DNA of 64,000 nt from an uncultured Ignavibacteria bacterium (GCA_964576925.1 CAZNWJ010000010.1:2363-66362), one strand, 5' to 3'. Shown: positions 218-32,415, numbered from the stretch's first letter. Notes: generated by a model from the sequence alone, not told the origin. Translations and numbers: made by a program.

Positions 218-231
218 GGAGGTAATTGACC

Positions 232-3102: not shown

Positions 3103-3123
3103 CCGCGGAAGATAGGGTGTCTC

Positions 3124-5340: not shown

Positions 5341-5344
5341 CTTT

Positions 5345-6520
5345 GTGTTGTTCCTTAGCTTAGTAGTCTACATAGTACTTCTGGTCATTTATCTGCCTGT
5401 CGTCAGGCCAGTGCTGGCATGTACAGAGAATGTACCGGATGCCCTCGAAGACATGCTGCTTTTTGCCGCCGCATTCGCTTTGACGCGTTTTGCATTGTAT
5501 CTGGCCGAGATCTACCATGAAGGGCTCTTATCCAAGCTTCAGAAGATTGTATCTAAGGACGGAATACGTCGTCTTGCATTTGTGAATGCCGCAATAGTGA
5601 TGTTTGCAGTACTTGCTCAGCTTATAGCAAAAGGCGAGTGGATAGGAGGGGCACCAATGGACTTCATGCTCCCAGTCTTCGTTGTGTCAATCCTTAACGC
5701 ATTTGGAATCGAGTTGTTTCCAAAGGTGATGCTAAAGAATGGCAGCTCTTCGACGGCCATGCCCAAAATATTGCCGGATCCCAGTTCGTTCTCGGAGGCG
5801 CCAGACCTGGTTCAGACGCCCCCCGGAGATGGCGATACCAAGGTTGTGGTACCGCAGTCTGAAGAGCAAGATTCTGAGATTCAAGAGTTCCCAACTATAC
5901 CGCCTCGGCGCAATTTTGAGTGGACGATGAATGGCAAGAGATTCCAAGTCCAAATAGATGTTCGCGAAGCAGTCTATAGAGAGCTGGCGAGTCGACCGCG
6001 TAATCTTAACCACAATGAGTGGGGAAAACACTACGTTTGTGATGGAATCACAGCAGAAATTCGAGAAGTAGCCTCCGAGCTGGCAAAGAAAGCCGAAGGG
6101 CAGAATTGTCGAAACGAAGTTGATTTGGTGCTTTCGTTTGTTCAGCAAGTTGTGAAATACACGAGTGACGGAGCGCGCGAGTACCCTCGCTATCCACTCG
6201 AAACACTTCATGATTCACTTGGTGATTGTGAAGATTTCGTGATTTTGGCGGCCGCCATTCTGAAATGCCTGTACTACGATGTCGCTTTGCTTCTGCTTCC
6301 AGAGCACGTCGCGCTTGGTGTAGCTGCCGCTGGTAATCTGCCCGGTCACTCAATTTCTCATGATGGGGTCGAATATTACTACTGCGAGATGACAGCCAAT
6401 CATGAGTTCGGGTCTTTGCCCGAAGACTGTGATCTGTCCAAAGCAGTGGTGCTGCCGGTCCCTGAGCCGGAAAGAAAAATAGTCTTGGTGGGCGACGAGC
6501 CCCGGATGATGTCCGATTGA
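5345..6520 (+). CDS. Membrane protein (about 4 N-terminal TM helices) with a C-terminal transglutaminase-like/papain-fold domain
   Basis: YPLETLHDSLGDCEDF (Cys), PEHVALGV (His) and YYCEMT (acidic) motifs; hydrophobic N-terminus followed by a Pro/Glu-rich linker. Confidence 0.8.
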   Translation: MLFLSLVVYIVLLVIYLPVVRPVLACTENVPDALEDMLLFAAAFALTRFALYLAEIYHEGLLSKLQKIVSKDGIRRLAFVNAAIVMFAVLAQLIAKGEWIGGAPMDFMLPVFVVSILNAFGIELFPKVMLKNGSSSTAMPKILPDPSSFSEAPDLVQTPPGDGDTKVVVPQSEEQDSEIQEFPTIPPRRNFEWTMNGKRFQVQIDVREAVYRELASRPRNLNHNEWGKHYVCDGITAEIREVASELAKKAEGQNCRNEVDLVLSFVQQVVKYTSDGAREYPRYPLETLHDSLGDCEDFVILAAAILKCLYYDVALLLLPEHVALGVAAAGNLPGHSISHDGVEYYYCEMTANHEFGSLPEDCDLSKAVVLPVPEPERKIVLVGDEPRMMSD

Positions 6521-6882
6521 CAGATTGAAATAGAAAGGGCCCAAGGAGTACTCCGGAATCAAGCTCTTCCATTAGATCGATCCTAGTCTCTGGTCAGCGC
6601 ACTTGGATTGAGTATTACATCTGAAATCGAGTGCCGAGCTAGCAAACGATCCGAGCTATTCAAGTTACAAAGGACTAGTAGTGTCCACTGTCAGATTTGG
6701 GAAGATGTGATTCATCATACGTCGTGTTCGCGTCAGCTGAATCTGGACACCAAGGGGTGCTTGAGTCAATACACAGTTTGGGTAAACTGTTGCATGGTGG
6801 AAATCAGTTCGCCGTAAGCATAGAACATGGTCAAATACCGAGAAGTGGAATACATGAATTTTCGTTTGAAAGACTCCGTTTT

Positions 6883-7104
6883 CTAACACCTGTCTAACAT
6901 AACTGGCCGAAACACGGGACAACACCGGACAGAATGAAAAGCATAAGTCTTTGTCAGTATTGTCCCGTCTTAGGGATGCCGTGAGAGCTCATCACGCGAA
7001 GATCAACTGTCGAAAATGCCTGGCTTAGCGGCGAGAAATCGGCCACAATTTGGTCACAGTGGCCAGTAAGTCCTTGTGCCACAACGCGAGTCTGGGGTTC
7101 GATT
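6883..7104 (+). repeat. att-like junction, copy 1 (diverged direct repeat of 27713-27964)
   Basis: Exact shared blocks with copy 2: GGGACAACACCGGACA (6916-6931), CACAATTTGGTCACAGT (7044-7060), CCACAACGCGAGTC (7079-7092). Also tandem 11-bp-period arm-like hexamers/heptamers (CTAACA x2, GG[C/T]CACA x2), IHF-like TAAGTnnTTG motifs, a tRNA-Met-like 18-mer (6987-7004) and GGGGTTCGATT (7095-7104). Confidence 0.7.
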
Positions 7105-7236
7105 ATCAAGTTCAGTTGGCGCTTCTAAGCTGTTAATAGACAACAAGATATAAACCCGTGTAAACGTGGCAAAGAGGCACGATTACAGCGCCGCCGCCTC
7201 AAAACTCTTCACCGAACATAAAGGACGCTTTGAGTC

Positions 7237-7440
7237 TTACAACCCGATCTTCGGAGTTCGGCTATAGCGTCCCTTCACCGATTTTGTGTTCAGCCACTTC
7301 TGAATCTCGTCGGGACGAAACCGCACGAAGTTTCCAATCTTCAAGTGAGGAATGTATTCAATATGAGTCCACTGGTAGATGGTTGACTTCTTCACACAGA
7401 GCATTTCGGCCAATTCTTCAGCTTTCAAGAGCCTGTCCAT
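7237..7440 (-). CDS. Excisionase/AlpA-like helix-turn-helix DNA-binding protein (HTH_17 type)
   Basis: MDRLLKAEELAEMLCVKKSTIYQWTHIEYIPHLKIGNFVRF is a typical HTH_17 pattern. GGAGG RBS precedes ATG 7440; gene lies next to the att-like junction. Confidence 0.8.
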   Translation of the reverse strand: MDRLLKAEELAEMLCVKKSTIYQWTHIEYIPHLKIGNFVRFRPDEIQKWLNTKSVKGRYSRTPKIGL

Positions 7441-7561
7441 GTCTTCAATACCTCCCGCACTCATCTGCTTATTATTGAGTTGATAGTTGTTCCTCGCCTC
7501 TCAGGGAAGTCCGGAGTGAATAACGTCATGACTGAAAGGGGACCCAGATTGCGCTTGACGA

Positions 7562-7590
7562 TCAATGAAAATGAGCTTTATTCAATGAAA
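7562..7590. promoter_or_regulatory. Direct repeat TCAATGAAA x2 (20-bp period) in the divergent promoter region between the HTH gene and the 9-gene operon; possible operator
   Basis: TCAATGAAA at 7562-7570 and 7582-7590. Function is inferred from position only. Confidence 0.3.
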
Positions 7591-7695
7591 GACATATTCA
7601 TCAACGACTGAACAATTGGTGCTTGCATTCAAGAGTTGCGACCCGATATTGTGAATTGATCCGGTAACAAATTCAGGCATAAAAGAGGCACGACC

Positions 7696-10600
7696 GTGAA
7701 CAACATTGCTTTTCCCCAGGCTCAGGCTGAGATGTCTGCACTTCTAAGCAGTGTCTCCAAGTACCTCTGCTCTTATCTTGGCAATCGACTTCCTTCAATC
7801 GCTGGTGACTGGTGGGAAAAGTGCGTGTTAGCGTGTCTAACCCCTGAACAAACAAGACGGGTCAAGAAGTACGGAACGAATTCTCTATCGGCACTGGATC
7901 TTGCCGCCCTGCTACGTATACTCGATCAGAACTGGCACAGAATTTCCACAAGCGAGAACTTGCCGCGAGAATCAAGGCACTTCTTGAAGGAGATGCAAAC
8001 AATCAGGAATCGTTGGGCACACGCAACGCTGGAAGGATTTTCGGTCGATGACCTGTACCGTGATCTCGATACTTTGCAACGATTTTCGACGATGATTGAG
8101 GCTGGGGAAGAGTTCGTCCAGATTGTGAAGGAGTTGAAGCGGTCGCTAGTCCATAGTGAAGAACAAAAATTGCCGGCGTCGGAGGTCGTCAGAGAGCAAG
8201 TCAACCAAGTGAAACGTTCCGAGTCCGACGAAATAAAACCGGGGCAATTAGTATGTCTAATCTCAAGACCCGATATTCATGGCGCCGTCATCGAGATGAT
8301 TCCAGGAAACCCCGAGAATCGATACAAGGTGTTTATTGAAGGAAAGGTTCAAGAATTCTATGCTTCACAGATTCAGTCGATTCAAACTCAAGAAGAAGAA
8401 TCGCTGGCCCTGACTGCCGATCATTTCCATGCATTTCTCACGTCACTGCAAATTCGTTATCCTGGGCTGGCAACGCTGTACTCATTGAATGCAGCTCGCA
8501 TCGATTATGTTCCTTACCAATTTCGTCCGGTGCTGAGGTTTATCCGTTCGGACCGACCTCGGCTTTTGATCGCCGATGGTGTAGGTGTTGGTAAGACTAT
8601 CGAGGCGGGATTGATTCTTCGCGAACTGCAGGCACGTCGGGATATTAGATCGATACTGATCATCTGTCCACGACCGTTGGTCACAGAACGAAAATGGCTG
8701 AACGAAATGAAGAGGTTCGAGGAACGATTCAGTCATTTGGACGGACCAACGCTGCGTTTGTGCATAAGTGAAATGGACTTGGATGGAAATTGGCCGGAAC
8801 AGTACCAGAAGATCATTGTTCCTTATTCACTATTTGATGAAACTCTGCTGCATGGCACGACTGCGGACGGCAAGCGAAAGCGCAAGCGAGGACTTCTTGA
8901 TTTGGATCCGCCGCCGCGATTCGATCTGGTAATTGTCGACGAAGCCCATCATATTCGAAACTCCAATACATATAGTCATCAAGCTGTCAGATTCTTCTGC
9001 GACCACGCTGAAGCGGTATTGTTCTTAACAGCGACTCCGATTCAGCTTGGGAGTCACGACCTGTTCGTGCTACTAAACACGCTTCGTCCCGACTTGATTA
9101 TCGATGAAGAGAGCTTTCGGCACATGTCTGAACCCAATGCGTTTATCAACCAGGCCGTCAGTGCTCTCCGCTCCCAAACAGATAGCAGTAATTTTCAATG
9201 TTTGGAGTCTCTTCAGCAAGCAGTAGACACCTCGTGGGGACGAGCGATTCTCAGGCAAAATCCGGAGTTCAATCGGGTCTGCACGGCCCTGCGCGAGAGT
9301 TTACTCTCCCCCGCTGAGCGAATCGAGCTGATCAGGGTTCTTGAAGATCTTCACACATTTTCGGGCATCATCAATAGAACGCGGCGACGAGACATCGGCG
9401 ACTTCACTATTCGTCAGCCAGAAACAGTGCGAATTGACTTCTCTCCGGACCAGCGCAAGCTTCACGACGAGTTGCTTGACGTCCAGGCGCAGGTTTTCGC
9501 CATGCTTCACGGCGACAAGAACGTGATGTTCATGCTGAGCACGATTCGTCGGCAGGCGGCGAGTTGCCTGTATGGCTTGGCACCGTTTCTGGAAGAGATC
9601 TTGAGTCGACACCTAGATGAACTCTCGTGGGATGAAGCCGACGATTCGCGTGGAGTTCCCAATCTCGAAGTCGTCACTCCGATCGAGTCAAGGATTCAAC
9701 AAGTTCTGGAAATGGCAAGGAATCTGGATCCCCGGGATCCAAAACTGGAGGCGTTGCGGAGAATCCTCCGAGAGAAGCAGCTTCTATCCAACAACAGAGT
9801 CATCGTCTTCAGCAGCTTTCGTCACACGCTTGGGTATCTTGAACGGCAGCTGTCGGCGGAGGGCCTACGAATTGCCCTGGTTCACGGTGACACTCCTGAC
9901 GAAGAGCGAGTTGAGCTTCGCAGCCGCTTTGAATTGCCTCGAGATTCAGAGCAGGCAATAGACGTCATGCTTTTTTCGGAGATCGGTTGTGAAGGTCTGG
10001 ATTATCAGTTTTGTGATTGCATCATAAACTATGACTTGCCGTGGAATCCTATGCGGATTGAGCAGCGCATAGGCCGTATCGATAGAAGGGGCCAAACGAG
10101 CGAGACCGTGGCCATCATCAATCTGATAACTCCGGGAACCATTGACGCGGACATCTACGATCGCTGCCTGCTACGTATCGGCGTGTTTAACGCCGCCTTG
10201 GGGGGCAGCGAAGAAATACTGGGGGAAATCCACAGTGAGATTCGCAATATCGCCGAAAACTTCATTCTGACGGAGGATCAAAGGAGAGAAAAACTGCAGC
10301 AGTTGGCGGATAACAAGATTCGCCTCTTGCAGGAGCAAGAAATGCTGGAGCAGCGACAACTTGAGCTGTTCGGTATTCGCTTGCCGGAGGAGCAGCTCAA
10401 GCAAGATATAGCGGATGCCACAAACTACTGGTTACTGCCAGAATCCCTGCTCAAGCTAGTCACTCACTACCTTCGATCGATTGCTGGCGCGGGTCAAGAA
10501 AGTATCCTTGGTGACAAACCCCTGAAGACCCTGCGCCTGTCTCAAGAAGCACGATCCCGACTACTGAGAGATTACCAGCAACTACCTCGGCAGAACACGC

Positions 10601-11286
10601 CGCCATATAGAGAGTGGGAGAATTGGCTCAAAGGAGGAGATCCGCACTTTTCGATCACCTTTGACCCAGATTGCGCGATGCTAAACCCCAAGACGGCTTT
10701 CCTGATGCCACTGCATCCGCTTGTAAAGCAAGCCGCCAATTCTCTTGATTCTGGTAGGCGAGTTTTCGCTTCACTGACGACAAAGAGCACAGAGGTTCCA
10801 GAAGGCAGGCACGAATTTGTAGTCTACCAGTGGCGGTTTCATGGGATCAAGGAGAATCAGATACTCCGCCCCGTGGCTACAAACGAAGCTGTAACTCAGC
10901 ACCTCGATGCTGTTCTTCAGGACTCATCTGACTGTAAGATCATAGAGCCCGGTGAACTTGGTCAGCAGACCTGGAATGATCTAGATCATAAGCATTATGA
11001 ACTTTGGGCCGAAGCCCGAGCGCAGCATCGTCGTCAGACACAGGAAATAGCTGCGTATCGTCGCGAGAGCCTGGCGGCCAGCCATCGCGCGCGTATTTTA
11101 CTGCTACAAGAGCAATTAGATCAGGCAAGCGATGACAGAATTCGGAAAATGCGTCAATCGCAGCTGGCCTCAGCGGAAGCCGATTATGCCAGACATCTTC
11201 AAGAGCTGGAAATTGCGGCCGAAAGGGCGGACATCACTGCTACTCCGGTGGCGTACGGCATGTTGGAGGTGGTGGCGAAGGCATGA
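7696..11286 (+). CDS. SNF2/RapA-like SF2 helicase with N-terminal Swt1-like HEPN domain
   Basis: LDLAALLRILDQNW...RNRWAH (HEPN RxxxxH); helicase motifs ADGVGVGKT, VDEAHH, LTATP, CEGLD and QRIGRIDR. Confidence 0.85.
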   Translation: MNNIAFPQAQAEMSALLSSVSKYLCSYLGNRLPSIAGDWWEKCVLACLTPEQTRRVKKYGTNSLSALDLAALLRILDQNWHRISTSENLPRESRHFLKEMQTIRNRWAHATLEGFSVDDLYRDLDTLQRFSTMIEAGEEFVQIVKELKRSLVHSEEQKLPASEVVREQVNQVKRSESDEIKPGQLVCLISRPDIHGAVIEMIPGNPENRYKVFIEGKVQEFYASQIQSIQTQEEESLALTADHFHAFLTSLQIRYPGLATLYSLNAARIDYVPYQFRPVLRFIRSDRPRLLIADGVGVGKTIEAGLILRELQARRDIRSILIICPRPLVTERKWLNEMKRFEERFSHLDGPTLRLCISEMDLDGNWPEQYQKIIVPYSLFDETLLHGTTADGKRKRKRGLLDLDPPPRFDLVIVDEAHHIRNSNTYSHQAVRFFCDHAEAVLFLTATPIQLGSHDLFVLLNTLRPDLIIDEESFRHMSEPNAFINQAVSALRSQTDSSNFQCLESLQQAVDTSWGRAILRQNPEFNRVCTALRESLLSPAERIELIRVLEDLHTFSGIINRTRRRDIGDFTIRQPETVRIDFSPDQRKLHDELLDVQAQVFAMLHGDKNVMFMLSTIRRQAASCLYGLAPFLEEILSRHLDELSWDEADDSRGVPNLEVVTPIESRIQQVLEMARNLDPRDPKLEALRRILREKQLLSNNRVIVFSSFRHTLGYLERQLSAEGLRIALVHGDTPDEERVELRSRFELPRDSEQAIDVMLFSEIGCEGLDYQFCDCIINYDLPWNPMRIEQRIGRIDRRGQTSETVAIINLITPGTIDADIYDRCLLRIGVFNAALGGSEEILGEIHSEIRNIAENFILTEDQRREKLQQLADNKIRLLQEQEMLEQRQLELFGIRLPEEQLKQDIADATNYWLLPESLLKLVTHYLRSIAGAGQESILGDKPLKTLRLSQEARSRLLRDYQQLPRQNTPPYREWENWLKGGDPHFSITFDPDCAMLNPKTAFLMPLHPLVKQAANSLDSGRRVFASLTTKSTEVPEGRHEFVVYQWRFHGIKENQILRPVATNEAVTQHLDAVLQDSSDCKIIEPGELGQQTWNDLDHKHYELWAEARAQHRRQTQEIAAYRRESLAASHRARILLLQEQLDQASDDRIRKMRQSQLASAEADYARHLQELEIAAERADITATPVAYGMLEVVAKA

Positions 11287-14200
11287 ATATGAAACTCAAT
11301 ATTAATCAGCTATCAGAGAGGCGAAAGAGCTGGGTTGAAGCGAATCGGCAGAATGGGTTCGAGGACGGAATTAAACGATTACTAACCGATCTCTATCCTG
11401 ATAACGCTCATTTTATATACGAACTCCTCCAGAATGCTGAAGATGCCGGTGCTACCGTTGTTCGATTCATCCTCAACGAAAATAATGTTGAGTTCGAGCA
11501 CAACGGAAGTCGTCTATTCTCGATAGAGGATGTTGACTCAATTACGAGTATAGGCGTCAGCAATAAAAGAGACGATCCCACCAGCATAGGGAAGTTTGGA
11601 GTTGGATTTAAGGCAGTATTTGCCTATACCCTAACTCCGCAAATAAAATCTGGCGACTTCCATTTCTGCATTCGCGACTTGGTTGTGCCAGTCACTGACG
11701 GTTTGATCCCATGCAATCGTGACAGAAATGATACGTTCATGACTTTTCCATTCGACAACCCGAAAATGCCGACTGAAAAGGCTCTAGCGAATATTGAAAA
11801 GCATCTTCGCCAATTGAACGAAAACACCCTGCTATTTCTCAGAAATATCAAACGCATTGAATACCTTTTGCCGGATTTAGGTCTGGGTTTTCTTGAACGA
11901 AGGGAAACGGAAGATAACCGTCTGGAGATTTCTGTCCAGCATCCGAATGAACTAGCGCCCTCCACTTTGCACTATCTCCGGTTTCAAAAACAAACTGAGA
12001 TTCGCGACGAGGACGGCAGTTCGAAATCATGTTCAATTGCCATCGCCTTCGCACTAGAGAAGGCGGAAGAATTAGGGTCTGAAAAGTCGCTCAAACGGTC
12101 CGAATTGCAGAATACAACGGAGTGGCGAATACGACCACTGAATCCGGGCCAAGTATTCATCTATTTTCCTACAGAGAAAGAAACTTCCAATCTCCGATTT
12201 CACATGCACGCTCCTTTCGCGTCCACCGTGGCACGCGATAGTGTTCGCGATTGTCCGGCAAATATTGAGTTGCGGGATCAATTGGTAGGGTTGGTTGCGG
12301 AGTCGATGCTTGCGATACGGGATCAAGGACTGTTGACAGTTCGATTCTTGGCAACGCTTCCAAATGACAAGGATAGTCTCCCAGTCTTCTACAAACCATT
12401 TATCGATGGGTTAGTAGAGACCTTCAAGGACGAGGCCTTAACCCCGATGAGAAATGGGGAGCATGCGCCTGCATCCGACATCTTCAGAGGCTCAGCTCAA
12501 TTGGCAAACCTAGTAACTGATGAAGACTTTGTAGCCCTCCTGGGCGAATCTTACACTCCACCGATGTGGGTGGCAAACCCACCTCAACGAAACCAAAGGG
12601 AAGATACCTTTTTGAATATGCTGGAGATCAGTGAATGGACTGCGGAAGACTTGGTTCGCGCACTCTGCGACAAGCCCAACACACTGGAGTTGTTCTTGGC
12701 CTCTAAAACCGACTTATGGCATCAGCAGCTCTATGTATTGTTAGCGGATTACCTGTCAGATGCTCCATCTGTTCCGTATCTGGAAGCGCAGAATCGCAAG
12801 CGATCTTTGGCGACTCTCCGCATAGTTCGGAGGTCCGATGGCAAGTACGGATCTGGAAGCGAGTGTTACTTCCCCAGTGAGGGAGTCGATCAGGACGATT
12901 TGATGCCGCGCGTCGCCAAAGGTGTTTACACTTCCGGAAGGAGTGAAGACCAGCAAGCTAAGGCAAAAGACTTTCTTCTGAAAATCGGTGTTCGTGAAGC
13001 AGGCGAGGCTGAACAAGTCGAGGCGATCCTCAAGAGCCGCTACTCAGATGATGCCGACGAAACAGGTAGTTTTGCACCCAAAATAGAGGATATCAAGCGA
13101 TTTGTTACCTTAGTCGAAAGAGAACCATTCCAGGCGAATCTGTTCAGCGAATATTCCATGTTTCAATTGAAAGACGGTGACTGGGGCAGACCACAAAGCG
13201 TATACCTGGACACGCCGTTTGGTGATACTGGTCTGAGCGCACTATATGATCTATTGGGCGAAAAGGCAGACCGCTGGGCACTTTCCCCAGACTACAAGAA
13301 ATGCGGCGTAGCAGTTGACAGAATTGTAGACTTTGCTAGAAGAGCCGGTGCTCAAAACAAATTGAACGTGATTTCGCTAGAGCAGTATTATTCTCAAGAT
13401 TATACAATCAATCACTTGGATCTTGCGCTGCAGGCTAAAGACTCTTCCATCTCCAAATTGATCTGGAAGACACTCGTTGAATTGGAGAGTGGATATGTTA
13501 TTGAGCAGTATGCTCACCGGTTGGTGCGGAAGCGAGTGAACTTCTATTACGATGGGGACTCAGAGTTAATCTCCAGGCTAAAGCATAGTGAATGGGTGCC
13601 TCAAGCCATGGCGAAGGAGCTGTCATTCGTTAGGCCGACTGATGCTGATCCGAAGTTACTTCCTGGCGGTTATTCATTTGACAAAGGCTGGAAATGGGTA
13701 GCTGCAGTCGATTTTGGCTGTTCTGTCCGCCAACGAGAGGAGGCAGCACGCCTTCAATCACAAAGCAAGAACGAGGCCATCCAACAGCTAAACGAAGTCG
13801 CACACAAACTGGGATTCGACTCGGTGAGTGAGGCCAGGGAGATGGCGGAGCTGAAGCGGTTGGACCCGAGCGGCTACAAGCGATGGCTTGAGCGCAACAA
13901 GCAGAAGCCAACATTTCCAACGCGAAATCCAGCGGATCCTGAGCGTCGCAGTGGAAAACTCACTGAACAACTCGATGAGGCGCCGACCAGAGAATTCCAG
14001 AAGCGCCAGAGAAGCGTCCGCACGACAAGGGGAGCGATCAACCCAGTACCATCGCTAAGGAGCCTATACACCAATCAAGACGACCAGATGATTTGTCAGT
14101 TGTGCAAGGAAGAAATGCCTTTTCGAAAGAGGTCCGGAGAGCACTATTTCGAAGCGGTCGAAGTCCTGTCCCAAGAGCTGTTGCCGAAAGAACACGAGGC

Positions 14201-14411
14201 CCAATATCTAGCGTTGTGTCCTTTGTGCGCAGCTATGTACAAGGAGTTTGTGCGGCACGACGAAGTTGTGATGTCGGCGCTCAAGCAGGCAATTCTGGAA
14301 TCCGAGGATCCGGAGATCAAACTGCAGCTTGGTGAGGTAGAGACTACTCTACAATTCGTTGAAACTCACTTCTTTGACTTGAAGACAATTCTCGGGGCCG
14401 ATAGCCCGTAG
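11283..14411 (+). CDS. Sacsin/MORC-type GHKL ATPase with C-terminal HNH-like Zn-finger domain
   Basis: HFIYELLQNAEDA and SIGKFGVGFKAVF GHKL motifs; C-terminal CQLC...YFEAVE...LALCPLC. ATGA overlap with the upstream gene. Confidence 0.8.
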   Translation: MNMKLNINQLSERRKSWVEANRQNGFEDGIKRLLTDLYPDNAHFIYELLQNAEDAGATVVRFILNENNVEFEHNGSRLFSIEDVDSITSIGVSNKRDDPTSIGKFGVGFKAVFAYTLTPQIKSGDFHFCIRDLVVPVTDGLIPCNRDRNDTFMTFPFDNPKMPTEKALANIEKHLRQLNENTLLFLRNIKRIEYLLPDLGLGFLERRETEDNRLEISVQHPNELAPSTLHYLRFQKQTEIRDEDGSSKSCSIAIAFALEKAEELGSEKSLKRSELQNTTEWRIRPLNPGQVFIYFPTEKETSNLRFHMHAPFASTVARDSVRDCPANIELRDQLVGLVAESMLAIRDQGLLTVRFLATLPNDKDSLPVFYKPFIDGLVETFKDEALTPMRNGEHAPASDIFRGSAQLANLVTDEDFVALLGESYTPPMWVANPPQRNQREDTFLNMLEISEWTAEDLVRALCDKPNTLELFLASKTDLWHQQLYVLLADYLSDAPSVPYLEAQNRKRSLATLRIVRRSDGKYGSGSECYFPSEGVDQDDLMPRVAKGVYTSGRSEDQQAKAKDFLLKIGVREAGEAEQVEAILKSRYSDDADETGSFAPKIEDIKRFVTLVEREPFQANLFSEYSMFQLKDGDWGRPQSVYLDTPFGDTGLSALYDLLGEKADRWALSPDYKKCGVAVDRIVDFARRAGAQNKLNVISLEQYYSQDYTINHLDLALQAKDSSISKLIWKTLVELESGYVIEQYAHRLVRKRVNFYYDGDSELISRLKHSEWVPQAMAKELSFVRPTDADPKLLPGGYSFDKGWKWVAAVDFGCSVRQREEAARLQSQSKNEAIQQLNEVAHKLGFDSVSEAREMAELKRLDPSGYKRWLERNKQKPTFPTRNPADPERRSGKLTEQLDEAPTREFQKRQRSVRTTRGAINPVPSLRSLYTNQDDQMICQLCKEEMPFRKRSGEHYFEAVEVLSQELLPKEHEAQYLALCPLCAAMYKEFVRHDEVVMSALKQAILESEDPEIKLQLGEVETTLQFVETHFFDLKTILGADSP

Positions 14412-14422
14412 GATGGAATTAA

Positions 14423-17400
14423 ATGGTTGCACCTTTCAAACACATCTCAATCAGAGTGCCGTGGCACGACACGGGCTGGGATGGACGTGTCTGTTTGCAC
14501 CCGAGCTTGAACGGATCCTGTTTGAAGCTAAAGCGTATAGGTCAGGAGCGTAACGACGAAGAAGAAGAGAGGGTAGCCGGAAGAAGTCTAAACGAGCTCG
14601 CTCCTGAAAAGTGGCCATGCTGCGTGGCTGAAAGAATGGCATTTATGGCTCCTTTCGACTATCATCGAGTCACCGTTCATCCTTACACGCGCACATCCCA
14701 AAAGAGTCATGGTCACTTTGCACCAACAACGCTTCGGTATCCAGCGTATTCCGCGCCTGCCGTCCCCTTTGCATGGCTACTCAAGGAGAACCTATCTACG
14801 CTTGGTGAGGAATTTGGGATCAATGTTCGGGCCGAGCGTGAACCCGACCTTGGTTTCAAGACTCAATGGATTCAACACCGTGACAACCAGAGTGCGCTGT
14901 TGGACTATTTCAGAAGCCAGATTCGACCACAACACTCCCTTTGCTTTTTCTATGCTAAGAGGGCGCCTTTTATGGAAGACCCCGGAATGAGTCGCATACT
15001 CATCGGCGTTGGTCGAGTGCTGAGTGTATCGCCATGCGTGGAATACGAATACAGCACAAAAGATCTTCATGGGCGACTGCGATCCGTCCTCTGGGAGTTG
15101 ATGGTCCAGCACAGTATTCGGCCTGATTTCCAGGATGGATTTATCTTGCCGTATCACGCGGCTATTCAATTAGCGGAAGATAACTCTGAGTATGATCCTT
15201 CAAAGCTTGCCGCGTTAACTCCTGATGATCGACTTCTGGAGTTTTCACATGCATCGCAGCACGTTACTCACGATGGCGCAATCGCGTGTCTTTTGGCCAT
15301 GGCCGAGTCGCTTCGAGAAGCTCAAACAACATTGCCGGGACCATGGGCAAGCTGCCTCACTTGGATTGATCAGCGCCTAGACGATTTGTGGATTGCTCGC
15401 GGGCCATTTCCGGGCCTCGGTTCCGCACTTTGTGCTTTCGGCGTTGAGTTGGGTACGTTCGTTGCGCTTGCATTGATGAAGAGGTTAGCGGAGAACTCCG
15501 ATCCATGGATTTTGGTGGATCAGCTAATGCGTGAGCCTGGAAAGTATCTCCCAAATCACCTTGCGAAGACAATCGACTTGACAAAACAGGCACACTGGAG
15601 CCAGCTGCCGAAAGAGCGTCGAGATCTCTTGAAACTCATTAGCCGATTTGAGGTAACGAAAGATCAGGCAAGACTTATCTACGCTAAGGAAGATCGTGGC
15701 GAACGTGGCCTCAACTGTTCCGACAGCAATATTCTTGCGAATCCTTATCTAGTCTACCAGATGACTCGCTTGAACTCTGACTCCATAAGTTTGTGGACTG
15801 TTGATCGTGGTGTCTTTCCTGACGAAGTAGTTAGAGCGCAACACCCGCTACCAACTCCAACGGCATTGAACTCTGGAACTGATGCCAGACGCGTCGGAGC
15901 ACTTGTGGTGAAGATTCTCGAAGACGAAGCGGCCATTGGCAATACTCTAATGCCGCAGGATCGACTAGTCACGGCGGTCAGAAATCTGAATATCAAGCCA
16001 GAGTGTTATATTGACGGAGATTTGCTAAATGTTGCCAAGAAGGAATTTGAAGGAACCATCATAGACACGAAAATGGCTGATGGGAGTAATGCACTTCAAC
16101 TCGATCGCTTGTCGGAAGTGGCCGAGATCATTAGGTCGTTTTGCAACAAGAGGATTGAGGGTAAGCGCCTAGCTGTTGAGGCAGACTGGCGCGGACTTCT
16201 CAATTGTCACCTTGACCGGAAAGGCGTAGGCATCCTGGACGAACTTGAAGAAAATGCTCGAGTGGAGAAGACTGCGGCCCTGAAAGAGCTTGCAGAATCC
16301 CGCATTAGTGTTTTGATCGGCCCGGCCGGAACGGGCAAGACGACATTGCTTTCAATCTTGTGCTCGCACCCCCAAATCTCCGAGGGTGATATATTGCTTC
16401 TTGCACCAACGGGTAAGGCCAGGGTGCGAATCGAGCAGTCTTCCGATCATCTCAATCTTAAGGGATATACCGTTGCCCAGTTCCTAAGTCCACACCGTTA
16501 TGATCCTGTAACAGGTCGCTACCTCTTGTCGGATAAAGTTGCGGAAGCAGGGGCCAGAACTGTCATCGTCGATGAAGCATCAATGCTGACCGAAGAAATG
16601 TTGGCGGCGCTGATTCAAGCCTTGACAGGAGTGCATCGACTGATCTTGATCGGGGATCCGCGGCAGTTGCCGCCGATCGGCTCTGGACGGCCATTTGTGG
16701 ACATTATCAACCGTCTAGCACCGGAAAATATAGCCGACCGATTTCCTCGAGTGGGGAGAGGCTATGCTGAGTTGACGATAAGACGTCGCCAAGCTGGAGT
16801 AGAGCGAGACGATATTCAACTGGCAGAGTGGTTCAGCGGCTCACCTATGCCACCAGGGGAGGACGATGTATTTGAAAATGTCACTCGATTAAATGGCGGC
16901 GGCCACGTTGGATATGTGCGATGGGAGACAGCTGAGGAGCTAAAGGAGAAGCTCTTAAGTACGATAATCAACACGCTCGGAATGAATGGGCTCGAAGATA
17001 TCCAAAGGTTCGATGAGTCATTGGGCGGAAAGGACTGGAATGGGTTGCGCTTCTTCAATTGCGGATCTGCAATCATAGCGGAGAATTGGCAAGTACTGTC
17101 ACCCGTCCGATCCGGACCACACGGGGTGCCGGATATCAACCGACTATTGCATAAGAAATTTAGACAACACTTCATCTCAGCTTCCATCCAAGAGAGAAAT
17201 CGCAGATACCCAAAGCCGATGGGGCACGAACAAATCGTTTATGGGGACAAAGTGATCAATCTCGTCAATACGGATTGTTCATTGCCCTGGAACAGACATC
17301 GCAGCGTGTACCCGCCAAAGCCTAAACCATACGTGGCCAACGGGGAAATCGGAGTCGTCATCGGGTACTTTTGGACGAATGAACATCGCAATCGCGGTCT

Positions 17401-18160
17401 AGATTTTCGCAAGAAAATGGAAGTAGAGTTCTCGTCGCAACCCGGGTTCAAGTATGACTACACGGGAAAAGATTTTAGTGAGGAGGCCAATCCAGCGTTG
17501 GAACTTGCCTACGCATTGACGGTGCATAAGGCGCAAGGCAGCGAATTTGGAACGGTGATCCTTGTATTACCCAATCCCTGTCGACTGCTATCTCGAGAAC
17601 TACTTTACACTGCGCTCACGCGGCAAAGGGAGCGCGTAATCATACTGCATCAAGGGCCGCGAAGCGAACTAAGAAAATACTCTTCAGATGATCATTCCGA
17701 TACTGCACGGAGAATCACAAACCTATTCATCGCGCCATCGCTGGTGGAAATGAACGGACGTTTTTACGAGGAGAGATTGATCCATCGAACATCTCGCGGA
17801 GAGATGGTTCGATCAAAGTCTGAGGTGATCATCGCTGATAGACTTGCCAGCTTTGGGGTCGCGTACCAATATGAGCGACCGCTTAGTATCGATCGAGTCA
17901 CCAAGTACCCGGATTTCACAATCGAGGACATGGACACGGGAAGGAATTTCTACTGGGAGCATTGTGGGATGTTGATGGTACCGAGCTACCGCCGGAACTG
18001 GGAAGATAAGCTAAAGTGGTACAGGGCAAACCAGATCCTTCCCCATGATGAGGGAGAAGGGGAGCGAGGTACGTTAATCGTAACGCAGGATTCGCCCGAA
18101 GGAGGGATTTCATCGCAAGACATCGAACAGGTGATCAGAAAATTGATCTTAGAGCGATGA
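14423..18160 (+). CDS. RecD-like SF1B helicase with long N-terminal domain and C-terminal PD-(D/E)xK-like nuclease
   Basis: GPAGTGKT, IVDEASML, IGDPRQLPPIG and AYALTVHKAQGSEF helicase motifs; C-terminal RSKSEVIIAD...YPDFTI...YWEHCGM. Confidence 0.85.
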   Translation: MVAPFKHISIRVPWHDTGWDGRVCLHPSLNGSCLKLKRIGQERNDEEEERVAGRSLNELAPEKWPCCVAERMAFMAPFDYHRVTVHPYTRTSQKSHGHFAPTTLRYPAYSAPAVPFAWLLKENLSTLGEEFGINVRAEREPDLGFKTQWIQHRDNQSALLDYFRSQIRPQHSLCFFYAKRAPFMEDPGMSRILIGVGRVLSVSPCVEYEYSTKDLHGRLRSVLWELMVQHSIRPDFQDGFILPYHAAIQLAEDNSEYDPSKLAALTPDDRLLEFSHASQHVTHDGAIACLLAMAESLREAQTTLPGPWASCLTWIDQRLDDLWIARGPFPGLGSALCAFGVELGTFVALALMKRLAENSDPWILVDQLMREPGKYLPNHLAKTIDLTKQAHWSQLPKERRDLLKLISRFEVTKDQARLIYAKEDRGERGLNCSDSNILANPYLVYQMTRLNSDSISLWTVDRGVFPDEVVRAQHPLPTPTALNSGTDARRVGALVVKILEDEAAIGNTLMPQDRLVTAVRNLNIKPECYIDGDLLNVAKKEFEGTIIDTKMADGSNALQLDRLSEVAEIIRSFCNKRIEGKRLAVEADWRGLLNCHLDRKGVGILDELEENARVEKTAALKELAESRISVLIGPAGTGKTTLLSILCSHPQISEGDILLLAPTGKARVRIEQSSDHLNLKGYTVAQFLSPHRYDPVTGRYLLSDKVAEAGARTVIVDEASMLTEEMLAALIQALTGVHRLILIGDPRQLPPIGSGRPFVDIINRLAPENIADRFPRVGRGYAELTIRRRQAGVERDDIQLAEWFSGSPMPPGEDDVFENVTRLNGGGHVGYVRWETAEELKEKLLSTIINTLGMNGLEDIQRFDESLGGKDWNGLRFFNCGSAIIAENWQVLSPVRSGPHGVPDINRLLHKKFRQHFISASIQERNRRYPKPMGHEQIVYGDKVINLVNTDCSLPWNRHRSVYPPKPKPYVANGEIGVVIGYFWTNEHRNRGLDFRKKMEVEFSSQPGFKYDYTGKDFSEEANPALELAYALTVHKAQGSEFGTVILVLPNPCRLLSRELLYTALTRQRERVIILHQGPRSELRKYSSDDHSDTARRITNLFIAPSLVEMNGRFYEERLIHRTSRGEMVRSKSEVIIADRLASFGVAYQYERPLSIDRVTKYPDFTIEDMDTGRNFYWEHCGMLMVPSYRRNWEDKLKWYRANQILPHDEGEGERGTLIVTQDSPEGGISSQDIEQVIRKLILER

Positions 18161-18221: not shown

Positions 18222-18599
18222 ATGTCAGAAGAACAATCGATAGCGGCAACTACAGAGAGTCTGAGAAAGTCGCTAATCAAAATTGCAGTTGAATCTTGGA
18301 GGGTCAGCCGAGTTATTCAGAGGATTTTGATGAAGCTCGATGCCGGCGAGCAAAACCGATTCCGGAGTCAGATGTCTTGGTTCTTGAAGAAAGTTGAGGA
18401 ATCTCTTAAGGAAGCAGATATGCGAATCGTCAACGTTGAGGGGCAACCGTTTGATACTGGAATGGCAGCGACACCGCTCAACATAGAAGAGTTCGGCGAG
18501 ACGGATAGGTTAATAGTTGATCAGATGCTTGAGCCGATCATCATGGCGAATGAAGGTCTGATCAGACCCGGCACTGTCATACTCAGAAGGGTTGAATAA
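18222..18599 (+). CDS. GrpE-like small protein (putative nucleotide exchange factor)
   Basis: Helical N-half followed by LKEADMRIVNVEGQPFD...PIIM...GTV, resembling the GrpE beta-domain; TAATG overlap with the Hsp70 gene. Confidence 0.6.
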   Translation: MSEEQSIAATTESLRKSLIKIAVESWRVSRVIQRILMKLDAGEQNRFRSQMSWFLKKVEESLKEADMRIVNVEGQPFDTGMAATPLNIEEFGETDRLIVDQMLEPIIMANEGLIRPGTVILRRVE

Positions 18600-21094
18600 T
18601 GAAGACATATGTTGGTATTGACCTCGGAACGACAAACAGCGCGATTTGTTCCTACGATGGGATGGCTACCCGCATTTGGAAAAGCCCAGAACAAAATGAT
18701 GTCACACCGTCTGCGATCTATATGGACAAGCGTGGCAACAAGTATGTGGGCAAGAGAGCCTATGATTCAGCACCATATAGCCCAGACAGTTCTGCCATGT
18801 TGTTCAAGCGACTCATGGGAACAAACACACCGCTCAACTTCACGGCACTGGGACTGACGATGTCACCGGAAGAGTGCTCCGCGGAGATTCTGAAGGTGCT
18901 TTTCGGATACCTGCCCGAGGAAATCAGAAATGGTTCTGATACCGGGACCGTGATTACCGTTCCCGCAGTCTTCGATCAGATGCAGAAGGATGCAACCATG
19001 CAAGCGGCGAACATTGCCGGAATTGGCAAAATCGCTCTCATGCAAGAACCTGTAGCGGCCGTCATGAGCGTCATGCGAACCCGCAACACCGATGGCATGT
19101 TTCTAATCTATGACTTGGGTGGAGGAACACTCGACATTGCCATAGCGCAGAGCATCGGTGGACGCGTCAGCATGCTTGCCCACGGAGGCATCGCAATGTG
19201 CGGGGGTCGAGAATTCGACCGCCTTATCGTTGACAGTATCGTTCGCCCTTGGCTTCTCGATACTTTTAGCTTGCCAGATAACTTCATGGTCGACCCAAGC
19301 TTCAAGTCGTTGGTTCGACTTGCGACTTGGGCAACTGAAAAGGCCAAGATCGAGCTTTCTTCCGTAGACGAAGCCGTGATCAGCCTATCTGAAACCGAGA
19401 CTAGAACTCGTGATCTAAAAGGGAAGGAAATTTACTTCGACATCCCGTTACCCAGGAGATCGTTTGACAGCCTGATCGATAAGTTGCTGGACGAATCAAC
19501 TGAAGCAGTTCGTGCTACCGTTTCGAAAGCTGGACTTACTCCTCACGATCTGGAGCGCATAGTGTTCATTGGTGGCCCAACTCATTATAAACCGTTGAGA
19601 GACAAGGTGGCCATCGCGGTGGGTATACCGGGAACCGCTGATGTGAATCCCATGACCGCTGTCGCCGAAGGGGCGGGCTTGTTTGCGGAGTCGGTTGACT
19701 GGAGTTCCCAGAGCCACTCGAGGAAGAGTTCTCGTGGGCAAATGTCGTCTGGCGGCGCACTGGCGGTGACGTTTGCATACAACTCACGGACTCCGGACGT
19801 GAGATCGAGAATCGTGGTTCAGATCGCTGGGCAGGTTGTTCCAGGATCGGAGTTTCAGATAGACAGTGTCGGTACTGGATGGACCTCCGGGCGCGTTTCG
19901 CTCAAGCCAGGTGCCAGTATAGATGTGACGCTCCACAAGGCTGGCGAGAATGTCTTCAAGGTGTTTGTGTTCGACTCTTTAGGTGGACCTCTTGCCTTGG
20001 AACAAGACAAGATCATCATCACAAGAACGGCAGCGACAGTTGACGCCATCCCCGCCTCGCATTCGATTGGCGTCGAAGTTCTCGAAAAACTGGGAGGCCG
20101 GCCAGTACTCCATTACTTAGTGCGCGCAGGCGACGCTCTTCCAAAGAAAGGCAGAGAGACATTCAAGGCGGCAGAGTCCTTAAAGGCAGGGGCAGCCAGT
20201 TCCTTGAATTTCAAGCTTTGGGAGGGTGAGATCGAGGATCCGGTCACGGACAATCGAGCGATTGGGGTTCTCAAGATAGCGGGTTCGGATTTCGATGACG
20301 GTGTGATTCCCGCCGGAGCGAACCTTGAATGTGAATATGAGATTCGTGACTCCGGAAACATCATGATAGAAGTTTCTGCCCCCTGTATTGGCGGCACATT
20401 TCATTCCGACAAGAATTTCTATTCGCGCCAGGAGGGCCAGCGCGACTATAGTTCGGATTCACAATTGATCGTTGAAGAGGGCGAGCAAACCCTGTCTCGA
20501 ATCGACAAAATCAACGAAGTGGTCGATGACCCCCGGATTGACCAAGCGCGCGAAAAACTCGACCAGGCAATCTTGCTTGATACGCAAGAGTCCGATCCGG
20601 AAACGGCAAAGAAGGCGCATGAGGACATCCTTGCGGCCAGAAGGATCCTCGCTCAAGTAAGAAAAGAGCATCTCAGAGAGATCAGGCAGATCGATCTCGA
20701 TCTCGTGGTCTCGTATTTCGACGATCATATTCGCCAATACGCTCGCCCATCCGAAGAAACGGCTTTTGACAATTTGGCGAAGACGGCGCAACGATCCATC
20801 GAGAGAAATGACCGGGATTTCGAGTATCATGTCGGCGAACTCAGGAGCAAGAATTTCGAGATTCTGTGGCGTCAGGACTGGTTTGTCATCGATCGTTTCA
20901 ATTATCTTACGAAATCGCCGCAATCGTTTTCTGACAAGATCCGATTTAAAGATCTTGCGCGAGCTGGTGCTCAGCTCCTGCAGGCTGACGACATCGATCA
21001 ACTTAGGGATATCACTTCACAGCTTTATCAAATCAGGATCTTTGTTGGGTCCGAGGACGACATGTCTGATCCTACGAATATCATGCGGGGATGA
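18599..21094 (+). CDS. Non-canonical Hsp70-family protein (intact ATPase domain, atypical extended C-terminus)
   Basis: YVGIDLGTTNS, VITVPA, IYDLGGGTLD and FIGGPT Hsp70 motifs. At 831 aa it is longer than DnaK, with an extra beta-rich insertion. Confidence 0.9.
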   Translation: MKTYVGIDLGTTNSAICSYDGMATRIWKSPEQNDVTPSAIYMDKRGNKYVGKRAYDSAPYSPDSSAMLFKRLMGTNTPLNFTALGLTMSPEECSAEILKVLFGYLPEEIRNGSDTGTVITVPAVFDQMQKDATMQAANIAGIGKIALMQEPVAAVMSVMRTRNTDGMFLIYDLGGGTLDIAIAQSIGGRVSMLAHGGIAMCGGREFDRLIVDSIVRPWLLDTFSLPDNFMVDPSFKSLVRLATWATEKAKIELSSVDEAVISLSETETRTRDLKGKEIYFDIPLPRRSFDSLIDKLLDESTEAVRATVSKAGLTPHDLERIVFIGGPTHYKPLRDKVAIAVGIPGTADVNPMTAVAEGAGLFAESVDWSSQSHSRKSSRGQMSSGGALAVTFAYNSRTPDVRSRIVVQIAGQVVPGSEFQIDSVGTGWTSGRVSLKPGASIDVTLHKAGENVFKVFVFDSLGGPLALEQDKIIITRTAATVDAIPASHSIGVEVLEKLGGRPVLHYLVRAGDALPKKGRETFKAAESLKAGAASSLNFKLWEGEIEDPVTDNRAIGVLKIAGSDFDDGVIPAGANLECEYEIRDSGNIMIEVSAPCIGGTFHSDKNFYSRQEGQRDYSSDSQLIVEEGEQTLSRIDKINEVVDDPRIDQAREKLDQAILLDTQESDPETAKKAHEDILAARRILAQVRKEHLREIRQIDLDLVVSYFDDHIRQYARPSEETAFDNLAKTAQRSIERNDRDFEYHVGELRSKNFEILWRQDWFVIDRFNYLTKSPQSFSDKIRFKDLARAGAQLLQADDIDQLRDITSQLYQIRIFVGSEDDMSDPTNIMRG

Positions 21095-21097
21095 ACG

Positions 21098-22564: not shown

Positions 22565-22576
22565 GGTAGCGATTTG

Positions 22577-24901: not shown

Positions 24902-24982
24902 GCAGCGAAATGAGAAGTCCCGACGCCGGGAGAACAAAGAAGGCGCAGGAAATCTCAACAGGATAATAAGTCGGTAAATAGC

Positions 24983-29130: not shown

Positions 29131-29196
29131 GAAGTGCCTCCGCTTACAGTAGAGTCTGTTTTTGTCGTCACTCAAGCACCGAACAACGAAAACTGA

Positions 29197-30564: not shown

Positions 30565-30633
30565 AGAGAACCTCCGTTTGAGATGATGTTGAATGCAGAA
30601 TTCGAATTCGATTGAACGGAAAACGTGGATTGA

Positions 30634-31977: not shown

Positions 31978-32415
31978 AACTCGAACCTCCAAATCAGAAG
32001 CAGAACGGTGTTAACGACGTTTCCATAAGCAGTTGTGGACGCGAAGCTCTGGGTATGCCGACAAGAGGTTTATGCGGCTGACAGAGTCCCCTCATAATAT
32101 AATACATGGGTAAATATAGTCCATGATAATTTCAAGAGAAATGGCTGCGTAGTCGAGCTTGCCCTAACGCCCTTAACGGCAGTGCAAAGGCCGTTCCAGC
32201 AGGATTGTGAGATTTTGGGGTAACAATCGCCGTTCGAAGAGAGCAACCTCAAGGGACTGCCGACAGCCGCCACAGGGAAGGCCTGCCGGATAGCCGCGGG
32301 GGAGTCGATGGTACGAAAGTTCTGACGGAGACCGTTATTTCTGCTTGCGCTGTGACCTTATTGTTGATAATTTCCCAGATAGGAATAATATGACAATTAG
32401 CGTGTCTCGAAATTC

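Follow-up and report, generated by a model that had tools for sequence, protein, structure and literature searches.

Three large genes follow one another on the plus strand of a 64,000-nucleotide stretch of DNA from an uncultured Ignavibacteria bacterium, the whole of which is called the window here, and they form the cassette that is the subject of this analysis. In gene order they encode a HEPN-SNF2 protein, a sacsin/Hsp90-like GHKL ATPase and a PDC-S68-type helicase-nuclease, which are labelled P1, P2 and P3 (Table 1). A preliminary description of the DNA had reported open reading frames (ORFs) of 1196, 1042 and 1245 codons, an ATGA overlap between the first two and an 11-bp gap before the third, and direct reading of the sequence reproduced each of these features. 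P1 starts with GTG, its stop codon shares the ATGA at 11283-11286 with the start of P2, and a spacer of 11 nt (14412-14422) leads from P2 to P3, with a Shine-Dalgarno-like AGGA 9 nt 5' of the P3 ATG. The placement of all three products in defence-type families was likewise upheld.

Table 1. The three genes of the cassette and the domains assigned to their products, in window coordinates
Feature	Coordinates	Strand	Basis
P1, HEPN-SNF2 helicase with DrmD/RapA-like core	7696..11286	+	ORF; Pfam HEPN_Swt1, SNF2-rel_dom, Helicase_C
P1 predicted HEPN (Swt1-like) RNase domain, residues 19-134, motif R104-N-R-W-A-H109	7750..8097	+	Pfam, E 2e-16
P1 SNF2 ATPase core (Walker A GVGVGKT 294-301, DEAH 415-418, motif VI 790-800)	8512..10245	+	
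P2, sacsin/Hsp90-like GHKL ATPase with variable centre and zinc C-terminus, 1042 residues	11283..14411	+	start overlaps P1 stop
P2 GHKL nucleotide-binding domain (E47, N51, D54; G103xxGxG108)	11283..11882	+	conservation, Foldseek
P2 central region, residues about 201-900, fastest-diverging	11883..13982	+	pairwise identity
P2 C-terminal zinc module (treble-clef, possibly HNH-derived), C938/C941/C979/C982	13983..14408	+	conservation, predicted beta-beta-alpha
P3, PDC-S68-type helicase-nuclease, 1245 residues	14423..18160	+	PADLOC PDLC05065; 11 nt after P2
P3 N-terminal domain (conserved H7, W14, C24, C33, C67, H86, H96, H98)	14423..15862	+	invariant columns
P3 RecD2-like SF1B helicase core (GPAGTGKTT 633-641, DEAS 717-720)	15878..17662	+	motifs, profile, Foldseek
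P3 C-terminal putative PD-(D/E)xK (Vsr-like) nuclease (E1134, D1164, E1179-H-C)	17750..18157	+	invariant residues

P1 is a HEPN-SNF2 fusion, as had been proposed, with Pfam domains for both parts, the SNF2/Helicase_C span covering residues 289-799. The motifs RNRWAH (104-109), GVGVGKT, DEAH and QRIGRIDRRGQ are all intact, and the motif residues of the SNF2 core are invariant in 62-66 of 66 homologues. The N-terminus carries the Rx4-6H catalytic motif of HEPN RNases, whose Arg, Asn and His are kept in 46-49 of about 50 domain-bearing homologues, and the predicted RNase motif is well supported. In a sample of loci centred on P2 (described below), 46 loci have the HEPN domain, and about 14-20 homologues are without it. 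Residues 181 to about 1158 of P1 align with profiles of DrmD (PADLOC, 1e-112; NCBIfam, 305 bits) and with RapA (3e-57), the more than 6000 relatives of P1 carry generic names only, and regions 135-280 and 850-1196 gave nothing significant in Pfam at E ≤ 5. For the HEPN-less homologues, a substitute effector gene upstream of P1 was considered and rejected, the flanking genes of the sampled pairs being housekeeping genes, and a small upstream ORF in a Rhizobium plasmid locus was discarded as a HEPN substitute for its zero HEPN similarity.

P2 is a GHKL ATPase nearer to sacsin and Hsp90 than to MORC, because both its profile and its structure matches point that way. It matches Pfam SACS, the NCBIfam sacsin ATP-binding domain (NF047352) and the sacsin SR1 entries of the PDB (5v44-47), and its AlphaFold2 (AF2) model, built on 118 homologues with a mean predicted local distance difference test score (pLDDT) of 84, best matches the N+M domains of Hsp90, Hsc82 and TRAP1 over about 530 columns (Foldseek, E 1e-8), followed by sacsin SR1 (2e-7), MutL and MORC2 (442 columns). 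The N-box (ExxxNxxD) and G-boxes of the Bergerat fold are present, with E47, N51, D54, G75, G103, G106 and G108 kept in 65-66 of 66 homologues. Mean pairwise identity is 0.44-0.51 at the N-terminus and falls to 0.25-0.36 over most of the centre.

The last 140 residues of P2 form the zinc module, for which AF2 predicts a beta-beta-alpha arrangement. C938, C941 and C979 are invariant (66/66), and position 982 is Cys in 34 and His in 31 homologues. The signature CQxC...PF...YFExVE...H..[N/Q]YLALCPx[C/H]AA, with the pattern C938xxC941...E957xxE960...H971xx[N/Q]974xxxLC979Px[C/H]982, is similar to the N...LxLCxxH portion of HNH domains; Pfam returned only weak zinc-finger matches for this C-terminus and none to an HNH model. 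The slot expected for the catalytic His holds Glu or Gln (E960/Q), and the stretch after the second Cys pair has no His. Thus, of the earlier assignment of P2 as a GHKL ATPase with an HNH-like domain, the first half stands and the second is reduced to a zinc scaffold, nuclease activity being unsupported because the catalytic His is replaced and no HNH model matches. Residues 130-1042, scanned in three pieces, gave nothing significant in Pfam at E ≤ 5, and the C-terminal half matched neither PD-(D/E)xK nor DUF3883 there.

P3 is a full-length PDC-S68 protein, its residues 1-1242 matching positions 1-1219 of the 1221 in PADLOC profile PDLC05065 with 1594.8 bits, and its homologues are 64-83% identical across phyla. 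No paper on "PDC-S68" was found in the literature. The RecD-like helicase named in the preliminary description was confirmed by TIGR01448 RecD2 (1e-56), by PDB entry 3gpl in Foldseek (E 2.5e-24, TM 0.76) and by the motifs of superfamily 1B (SF1B). The N-terminal 480 residues form a domain with conserved Cys and His, of which about the first 230 residues are modelled by AF2 with low confidence. The PD-(D/E)xK nuclease is plausible: the C-terminal topology and the invariant E1134, D1164 and E1179 fit this fold, with the Lys replaced (E-H-C), and residues 1119-1204 weakly match PDC-S69 of PADLOC. Pfam gave nothing significant for residues 1-480 and 1085-1245 at E ≤ 5, a profile of the C-terminus returned only noise against all PDB sequences, and an hhalign comparison with a Vsr protein of locus L167 was in register at a non-significant Prob of 0.3%. 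A PD-(D/E)xK or Vsr-like nuclease is the probable assignment from the model, and it stays at that grade because no search gave a significant match. The hidden Markov model and structure searches proposed earlier for the uncharacterised regions confirmed the GHKL and RecD2 cores, by which the whole-chain Foldseek results of P2 and P3 are dominated, and left the middle and C-terminal regions without a significant match.

The genomic neighbourhood of the pair was followed in 80 loci retrieved through a profile of P2 homologues, of which there are at least 524 among 185,579 species genomes. The loci come from Desulfobacterota, Entotheonella, Latescibacterota, Chloroflexota, Poribacteria, Planctomycetota, Acidobacteriota, Actinomycetota, Alpha-, Beta- and Gammaproteobacteria, and others; the family is patchy, reaching at least 0.3% of the species representatives and spanning more than 10 phyla, plasmids included. 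Cultured carriers are Pseudomonas fluorescens LY3 (NZ_QLIN01000002.1; L020, with P1 at 6339-9920, P2 at 10001-12997 and P3 at 13266-16919), Sphingopyxis bauzanensis DSM 22271 and an Arthrobacter strain. Only two neighbour clusters are conserved, P2 itself (79 loci) and the P1-type SNF2 protein (75 loci), and no third gene is conserved around the two. A member of the P1 cluster lies upstream on the same strand in 70 of the 80 loci, and about 66 of these are true pairs once the distant SNF2 genes of other cassettes (L029, L041, L045, L048) are left out. The intergenic gap is at most 100 nt in 62 pairs (overlapping in 53, within 100 nt in 9), and its median of -4 nt is the ATGA-type coupling of the window. 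When HEPN-SNF2 homologues on long contigs were looked up instead, a SACS-domain gene directly followed P1 in four cases out of four, and in L165 the two genes stand alone between phosphoglucomutase and Mur ligase genes. Taken together, the pairing counts, the look-ups, L165 and the lack of a conserved third gene make P1-P2 an obligate, self-contained and methylase-free pair. Elsewhere it is found next to Kiwa, type I restriction-modification (R-M) genes, a DISARM-like set, an ABC-3C system and Tra genes.

Methyltransferase or specificity domains were absent from all 13 large plus-strand ORFs of 226-27317 and from 10 large ORFs of the 28-64 kb part, in a scan that left out several further large ORFs in 44-63 kb. 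Among the 142 genes immediately flanking P1-P2 homologues, N6_Mtase occurs in 3, and every other Pfam domain in at most 7. A cognate methyltransferase is therefore not consistently present beside the homologues, and the earlier statements that the cassette lacks one and that self/non-self discrimination is not based on methylation both agree with the scanned ORFs and the homologous loci; on the same counts, the pair is not a restriction-modification system. The further suggestion that discrimination may rely on a downstream chaperone module found no such backing. The tubulin-like, Hsp70-like, AAA and TPR genes of the window co-occur with P1-P2 in 0 of 80 loci, and the Hsp70/AAA/TPR operon was rejected as part of the P1-P2 system on that count. 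The only other place with a chaperone-like gene near any of the three families is the pair of loci L090 and L093, which look near-duplicate and carry an 803-residue Hsp70-like gene (27% identical to that of the window) two genes, or about 0.8 kb, after P3.

Variants of the pair were also observed. In L015 (5897-13144), where the genomic P2 homologue nearest to that of the window (59% identity) lies, a single P1 gene precedes a tandem pair of sacsin-like paralogues, first a 1252-residue protein and then the P2 homologue. On plasmid pSULKU01 of Sulfuricurvum kujiense (L170, 4315-8021), a distant sacsin-like GHKL domain is fused to DUF3883 in a locus without SNF2, with a NERD-domain gene before it and qatABCD after it, so that the GHKL scaffold is seen to combine with more than one kind of nuclease module.

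P3 behaves differently from the pair. It adjoins P1-P2 in about 5 of the 80 P2-centred loci (about 6%), namely L020, L026 and L052, L079 with a 185-residue remnant and L050 with P3 upstream of P1. In a second sample of 84 loci retrieved through P3, 80 of them metagenomic, P1-P2 stand beside P3 in about 10 (about 12%). All three occur together in the window, L081, L084, L085, L136/137, L020, L026, L052, L167 and L050; the closest P3 homologues (70-83% identity) sit behind P1-P2, and a contig-truncated P2-like gene lies upstream of P3 in L082 and L083. Among the loci with all three, L081 lies beside Kiwa and L084 beside Tra genes. The preliminary treatment of the three genes as one system is thus not borne out by their distribution.

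Far more varied company surrounds P3 elsewhere. The arrangement hsdM-P3-hsdS-hsdR occurs in about 9 loci, P3 follows a PLD-SNF2 gene with a type ISP-like methyltransferase in 5-7, a type III Res gene in 4 and Eco57I-like methyltransferases in 3, and it precedes another SNF2 gene in 5 and lies next to a UvrD-like gene in several. Altogether, the immediate same-strand neighbour of P3 belongs to a GHKL, SNF2, HsdM/S/R, type III Res, ISP/Eco57I methyltransferase or UvrD cassette in 42 of the 84 loci, typically at gaps of -7 to +26 nt, and the other 42 have no recognised partner next to P3. P3 is regarded as a separable unit because P1-P2 adjoin few of its loci while restriction cassettes adjoin many, the restriction operons that enclose it being of type I, type III and type ISP/IIG-like kinds. 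Several single loci show how the gene varies in place and form: it lies between hsdM and hsdS with overlapping stop and start codons in L109, L116, L118, L122 and others, is split into ORFs of 708 and 539 residues in L167 (14631-18352), is reduced to the remnant at 12960-13517 in L079, precedes the pair in the order P3-P1-P2 in L050 (2322-6227) and stands between two GHKL genes (GHKL-P3-GHKL) in L145.

These results suggest that the cassette probably consists of two units, a methylation-independent module formed by P1 and P2 (7696-14411) and a separable PDC-S68 helicase-nuclease (14423-18160). For the pair, a methylation-independent system against phages or other mobile genetic elements is the most likely function, and the case for a defence role is strong. 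More tentatively, an effector may be named for it and some cooperation between P3 and its neighbours may exist.

Comparison within the families hints at how the labour may be divided inside P2. The window's P1 (72%) and P3 (83%) have their nearest relative in L081, whose P2 is only 30% identical overall, at 40% over residues 1-200, 16-25% over 201-900 and 54-67% over 901-1042. Across 65 loci, the identity of the P2 C-terminus to the window tracks that of P1 (Spearman 0.75, p 7e-13), whereas the N-terminus of P2 does so at only 0.15 despite adjoining P1 in the DNA. In the simplest reading of these identities, which is put forward tentatively, the zinc module may be the part of P2 that contacts P1, and the centre may be a region that diversifies and perhaps recognises targets.

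No PADLOC v2 system model, NCBIfam release 20 model or RefSeq product name covers the P1-P2 pair; RefSeq calls its members "helicase-related protein" and "hypothetical protein". Searches of the literature returned no account of the pair, and it may have a name in the current DefenseFinder. A precedent has been on record since 2008 in operons of a GHKL ATPase and a SWI2/SNF2 helicase, R-M-like and sometimes with HNH (PMC2292703), and HEPN-SWI2/SNF2 fusions were listed in 2013 (PMC3710099). With the MORC/paraMORC-SNF2 operons of Iyer, Abhiman and Aravind (2008, PMC2292703), the pair shares a GHKL gene beside an SNF2 helicase in a mobile restriction-like operon, for which an ATP-driven clamp and a translocase were the proposed logic and in which an HNH-type module is frequent. 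P2-P1 likewise combine a GHKL plus S5-type module with a neighbouring superfamily 2 (SF2)/SNF2 gene, the S5 part being judged from the Hsp90 N+M and MORC2 alignments. In contrast to those operons, which often include methylases and restriction endonucleases or Vsr nucleases, P1-P2 contain neither, and the nuclease is an RNase-type HEPN domain fused to the helicase; on its Pfam assignment (SACS, not HATPase_c_3), P2 is probably distinct from the MORC and paraMORC1-5 families.

Single components of the pair also approach other defence systems without belonging to them. Residues 1-672 of P2, a span that takes in the sacsin-like GHKL domain and the region after it, match positions 1-654 of the 1302 in the best-matching PADLOC profile of TmtA (E 7.6e-56), the protein of Tiamat, for which a single gene with a PD-(D/E)xK domain is on record (preprint 10.1101/2024.10.26.620412). 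TmtA profiles measure 1063-1782 residues and P2 fits their N-terminal part only; unlike Tiamat, P2 has a zinc module at its end and nearly always an SNF2 partner, and membership was rejected since the C-terminal half does not align and SNF2 lies upstream in about 66 of 79 loci. P1 carries a HEPN domain in addition to the region shared with DISARM DrmD, and it reaches 305 bits with NF038317 against a cut-off of 610; DrmA (helicase/DUF1998), DrmB, DrmC (PLD) and the methylase DrmM (DrmMI) were neither found in the ORFs of 226-27317 nor conserved in the 80 loci, and DISARM membership was rejected on both counts. Hma comprises the SNF2-DUF3883 nuclease HmaA, the methylase HmaB and the DUF499 ATPase HmaC (PMC11232893), and HmaA, an SNF2-nuclease, protects alone against T4 (PMC11232893). 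The likeness lies in an SNF2-nuclease fusion with a large accessory ATPase, P1 matching the HmaA profile at 1e-39, and in the insertion of other defence genes within the operon (PMC11232893). Hma differs in its C-terminal PD-(D/E)xK DNase, its AAA+ (DUF499) ATPase and its usual methyltransferase, whereas P1 has an N-terminal HEPN domain and P2 is a GHKL protein without any HmaC match in PADLOC, and membership of Hma was rejected.

P3 is the same as PDC-S68 at the level of sequence, and what is added here is its context, since the gene is frequently embedded in operons by R-M, SNF2 and GHKL cassettes and not solitary. Genes of the PrrC/RloC type sit in type I R-M operons, between hsd genes. P3 is like them in being a large NTPase-nuclease gene placed between hsd genes; it differs in that it is no anticodon nuclease and couples a RecD-like DNA helicase to a putative DNase-type fold, and by this analogy a guard function of P3 in hsd operons may be hypothesised. 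The HEPN context of PrrC/RloC-type genes has been described (PMC3710099), and the same survey covers eukaryotic sacsin, in which Hsp90-like SIRPT repeats, DnaJ and HEPN link GHKL to HEPN (PMC3710099). In the pair, GHKL and HEPN lie on separate proteins with the SNF2 motor between them, the HEPN domain of P1 is of the Swt1 family and not of the HEPN-T family as in sacsin, and conservation does not extend to the neighbouring Hsp70-like gene.

The cassette belongs to a 28-kb stretch with a guanine-cytosine (GC) fraction of 0.48-0.51, beside a stretch of 0.54-0.60 with ordinary host genes (KatG, a Ser/Thr kinase, BipA, an RND pump, a subtilase). The step from about 0.49-0.51 to 0.54-0.60 at about 27.3-28.0 kb marks the right edge of the island, and the left edge falls beyond the window. 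Just past the right edge, at 28045-31992 on the minus strand, three successive ORFs (376, 455 and 452 residues) have zero Pfam matches. The trio sits between two further operons on the plus strand. Upstream (226-6520) are a Tubulin_2-family protein (958 residues), a 738-residue protein with a weak holin-like or transmembrane match and a transglutaminase-like protein (391 residues), none of them matched by PADLOC. Downstream (18222-27317) are a 125-residue ORF, an Hsp70-like protein of 831 residues in which Pfam sees the nucleotide-binding domain only, an IetA/CDC48-like AAA ATPase, a TPR protein of 775 residues and two unknowns of 552 and 228 residues. The two operons may be related, because Tubulin+HSP70(+GTPase) conflict systems are on record (PMC7159879). 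Neither a tRNA scan nor Rfam found anything across the whole window, and scans for promoters, terminators and repeats were uninformative.

The window derives from an activated-sludge or wastewater organism, and assembly depth is even over the cassette at 10-14x. Contigs of three RNA-labelled runs, at least 99% identical, fall within P1, across the P1/P2 junction (11252-11402), within P2 and in the 5' part of P3, which suggests that the cassette is expressed and P1-P2 co-transcribed; the suggestion is a weak one because carry-over of DNA is possible. In the best-matching metagenome run, the unitig with most of the trio breaks at about 8001-8029, in the HEPN motif region, and at about 18068, just inside the 3' end of P3, and related paralogues or strain variants in the sample may account for these breaks.

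A working model can be sketched for the two units. P2 would form dimers by way of its GHKL domain and serve as an ATP-driven clamp or sensor in the manner of Hsp90, MutL and MORC, its fast-evolving centre would recognise some feature of the invader, either a DNA structure or a phage protein, and its conserved zinc module would dock on P1. P1 would act as the motor that translocates on nucleic acid, and its HEPN RNase, where present, would be released as the effector, with RNA cleavage, abortive infection or loss of transcripts as the outcome. In HEPN-less pairs, the degenerate HNH-like module might keep some activity, or ATP-driven displacement or trapping might work without cleavage. P3 would degrade DNA from ends or nicks in the RecD-like 5'-3' direction, either alone or as a helper or back-up of a neighbouring translocase system; the processive degradation is suggested by the fusion of a RecD-like 5'-3' helicase to a putative DNase-type fold, and the helper or back-up role by its placement in R-M operons.

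Several points weigh against the two-unit interpretation and its model. What is known of the function of P1-P2 and of PDC-S68 comes from sequence and models. About a quarter of the P1 homologues have no HEPN domain, and since their pairs show no recognisable effector, the RNase-centred mechanism is weakened; the C-terminus of P2, which lacks the catalytic His of HNH/His-Me finger nucleases, offers no ready replacement. The best structural matches of the P2 model are protein chaperones (Hsp90) rather than clamps on DNA, which leaves DNA sensing hypothetical and a protein-sensing mode conceivable. The nuclease assignment of P3 is without statistically significant support, and half of the P3 loci are without a recognised partner, as would be expected if P3 worked autonomously as a single gene. 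Subfamily structure, instead of contact, could underlie the correlation of the P2 C-terminus with P1, and the contigs of the RNA-labelled runs could hold contaminating DNA.

The strongest of the other explanations is pure accretion, in which P1-P2 and an autonomous P3 are functionally unrelated and lie side by side through the clustering of defence genes. It is possible, though rather unlikely. PADLOC classes the P3 family as a single-gene candidate, in keeping with the 42 partnerless loci, the window itself is a multi-system island with the tubulin-like and Hsp70/AAA/TPR operons on either side, and the insertion of genes inside defence operons is on record for Hma (PMC11232893). However, P3 is co-oriented and start/stop-coupled with its neighbours even between hsdM and hsdS, and its partners are strongly biased towards SF2-translocase/restriction cassettes and sacsin-like GHKL genes, so that simple accretion may understate the link for a gene so often embedded in operons. 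The fallback offered in the preliminary description, three independent genes that had accreted together, is only half right, because P1 and P2 are an obligate pair while P3 is separable; correspondingly, the pattern of each gene being found mostly alone, named there as a possible refutation, applies to P3 and clearly not to P1 or P2.

A bolder alternative is improbable and takes the chaperone likeness at face value: P2 would be a chaperone-like immune sensor whose hypervariable centre, likened to a client-binding region, binds phage proteins and not DNA marks, and whose zinc module licenses the SNF2 motor and HEPN domain, in a defence logic based on protein sensing and independent of methylation. 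The pair would then be a prokaryotic antecedent of the GHKL-HEPN link of sacsin, and PDC-S68 would serve as a guard or back-up nuclease for translocase systems of this sort and for R-M operons.

One obligate three-component machine made of P1, P2 and P3 is highly improbable. Besides the tight coupling of the trio in the window, the order P1-P2-P3 recurs in at least eight independent loci of different lineages with spacers of -13 to +40 nt, and the P2 family of sacsin-like GHKL proteins is the most frequent single upstream neighbour of P3 (about 11 of 76 loci). Nevertheless, P1-P2 are without P3 in about 75 of 80 loci and P3 is without P1-P2 in about 70 of 84 and is found in unrelated R-M operons, and such a machine is hard to reconcile with the mere remnant of P3 in L079, the different gene order of L050 or the pair alone in L165.

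Least likely of all is a facultative housekeeping role, with P1 in RapA-like recycling of RNA polymerase or as a chromatin-remodelling ATPase and P2 as an Hsp90-like chaperone, since the RapA match, the closeness of P2 to Hsp90, the housekeeping surroundings of L165 and the HEPN-less variants without a recognisable nuclease are countered by the patchy spread suggestive of horizontal transfer, plasmids included, by the low-GC island, by the recurrent R-M, Kiwa, DISARM-like and ABC-3C neighbours, by the active-type HEPN toxin domain of most P1 proteins and by the homology of the N-terminal two thirds of P2 to TmtA.

The reading of two units therefore introduces P1-P2 as an uncharacterised conserved pair, and PDC-S68 as a known candidate whose embedding in restriction-type operons is newly documented. 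If P1-P2 works in defence, it would represent a widespread family that tells invaders apart without DNA modification, joining a GHKL clamp and a HEPN RNase to an SNF2 motor, three engines for which cooperation has been predicted since 2008-2013. The obligate partnership, the zinc end of P2 as a candidate interaction module and its centre as a candidate specificity region provide testable handles. The wiring of PDC-S68 suggests a general "plug-in" helicase-nuclease that may finish or back up translocase-based restriction, which bears on the cooperation between defence systems, and the link between a sacsin-type ATPase and HEPN is of interest for how sacsin, the human ataxia protein, arose in evolution.

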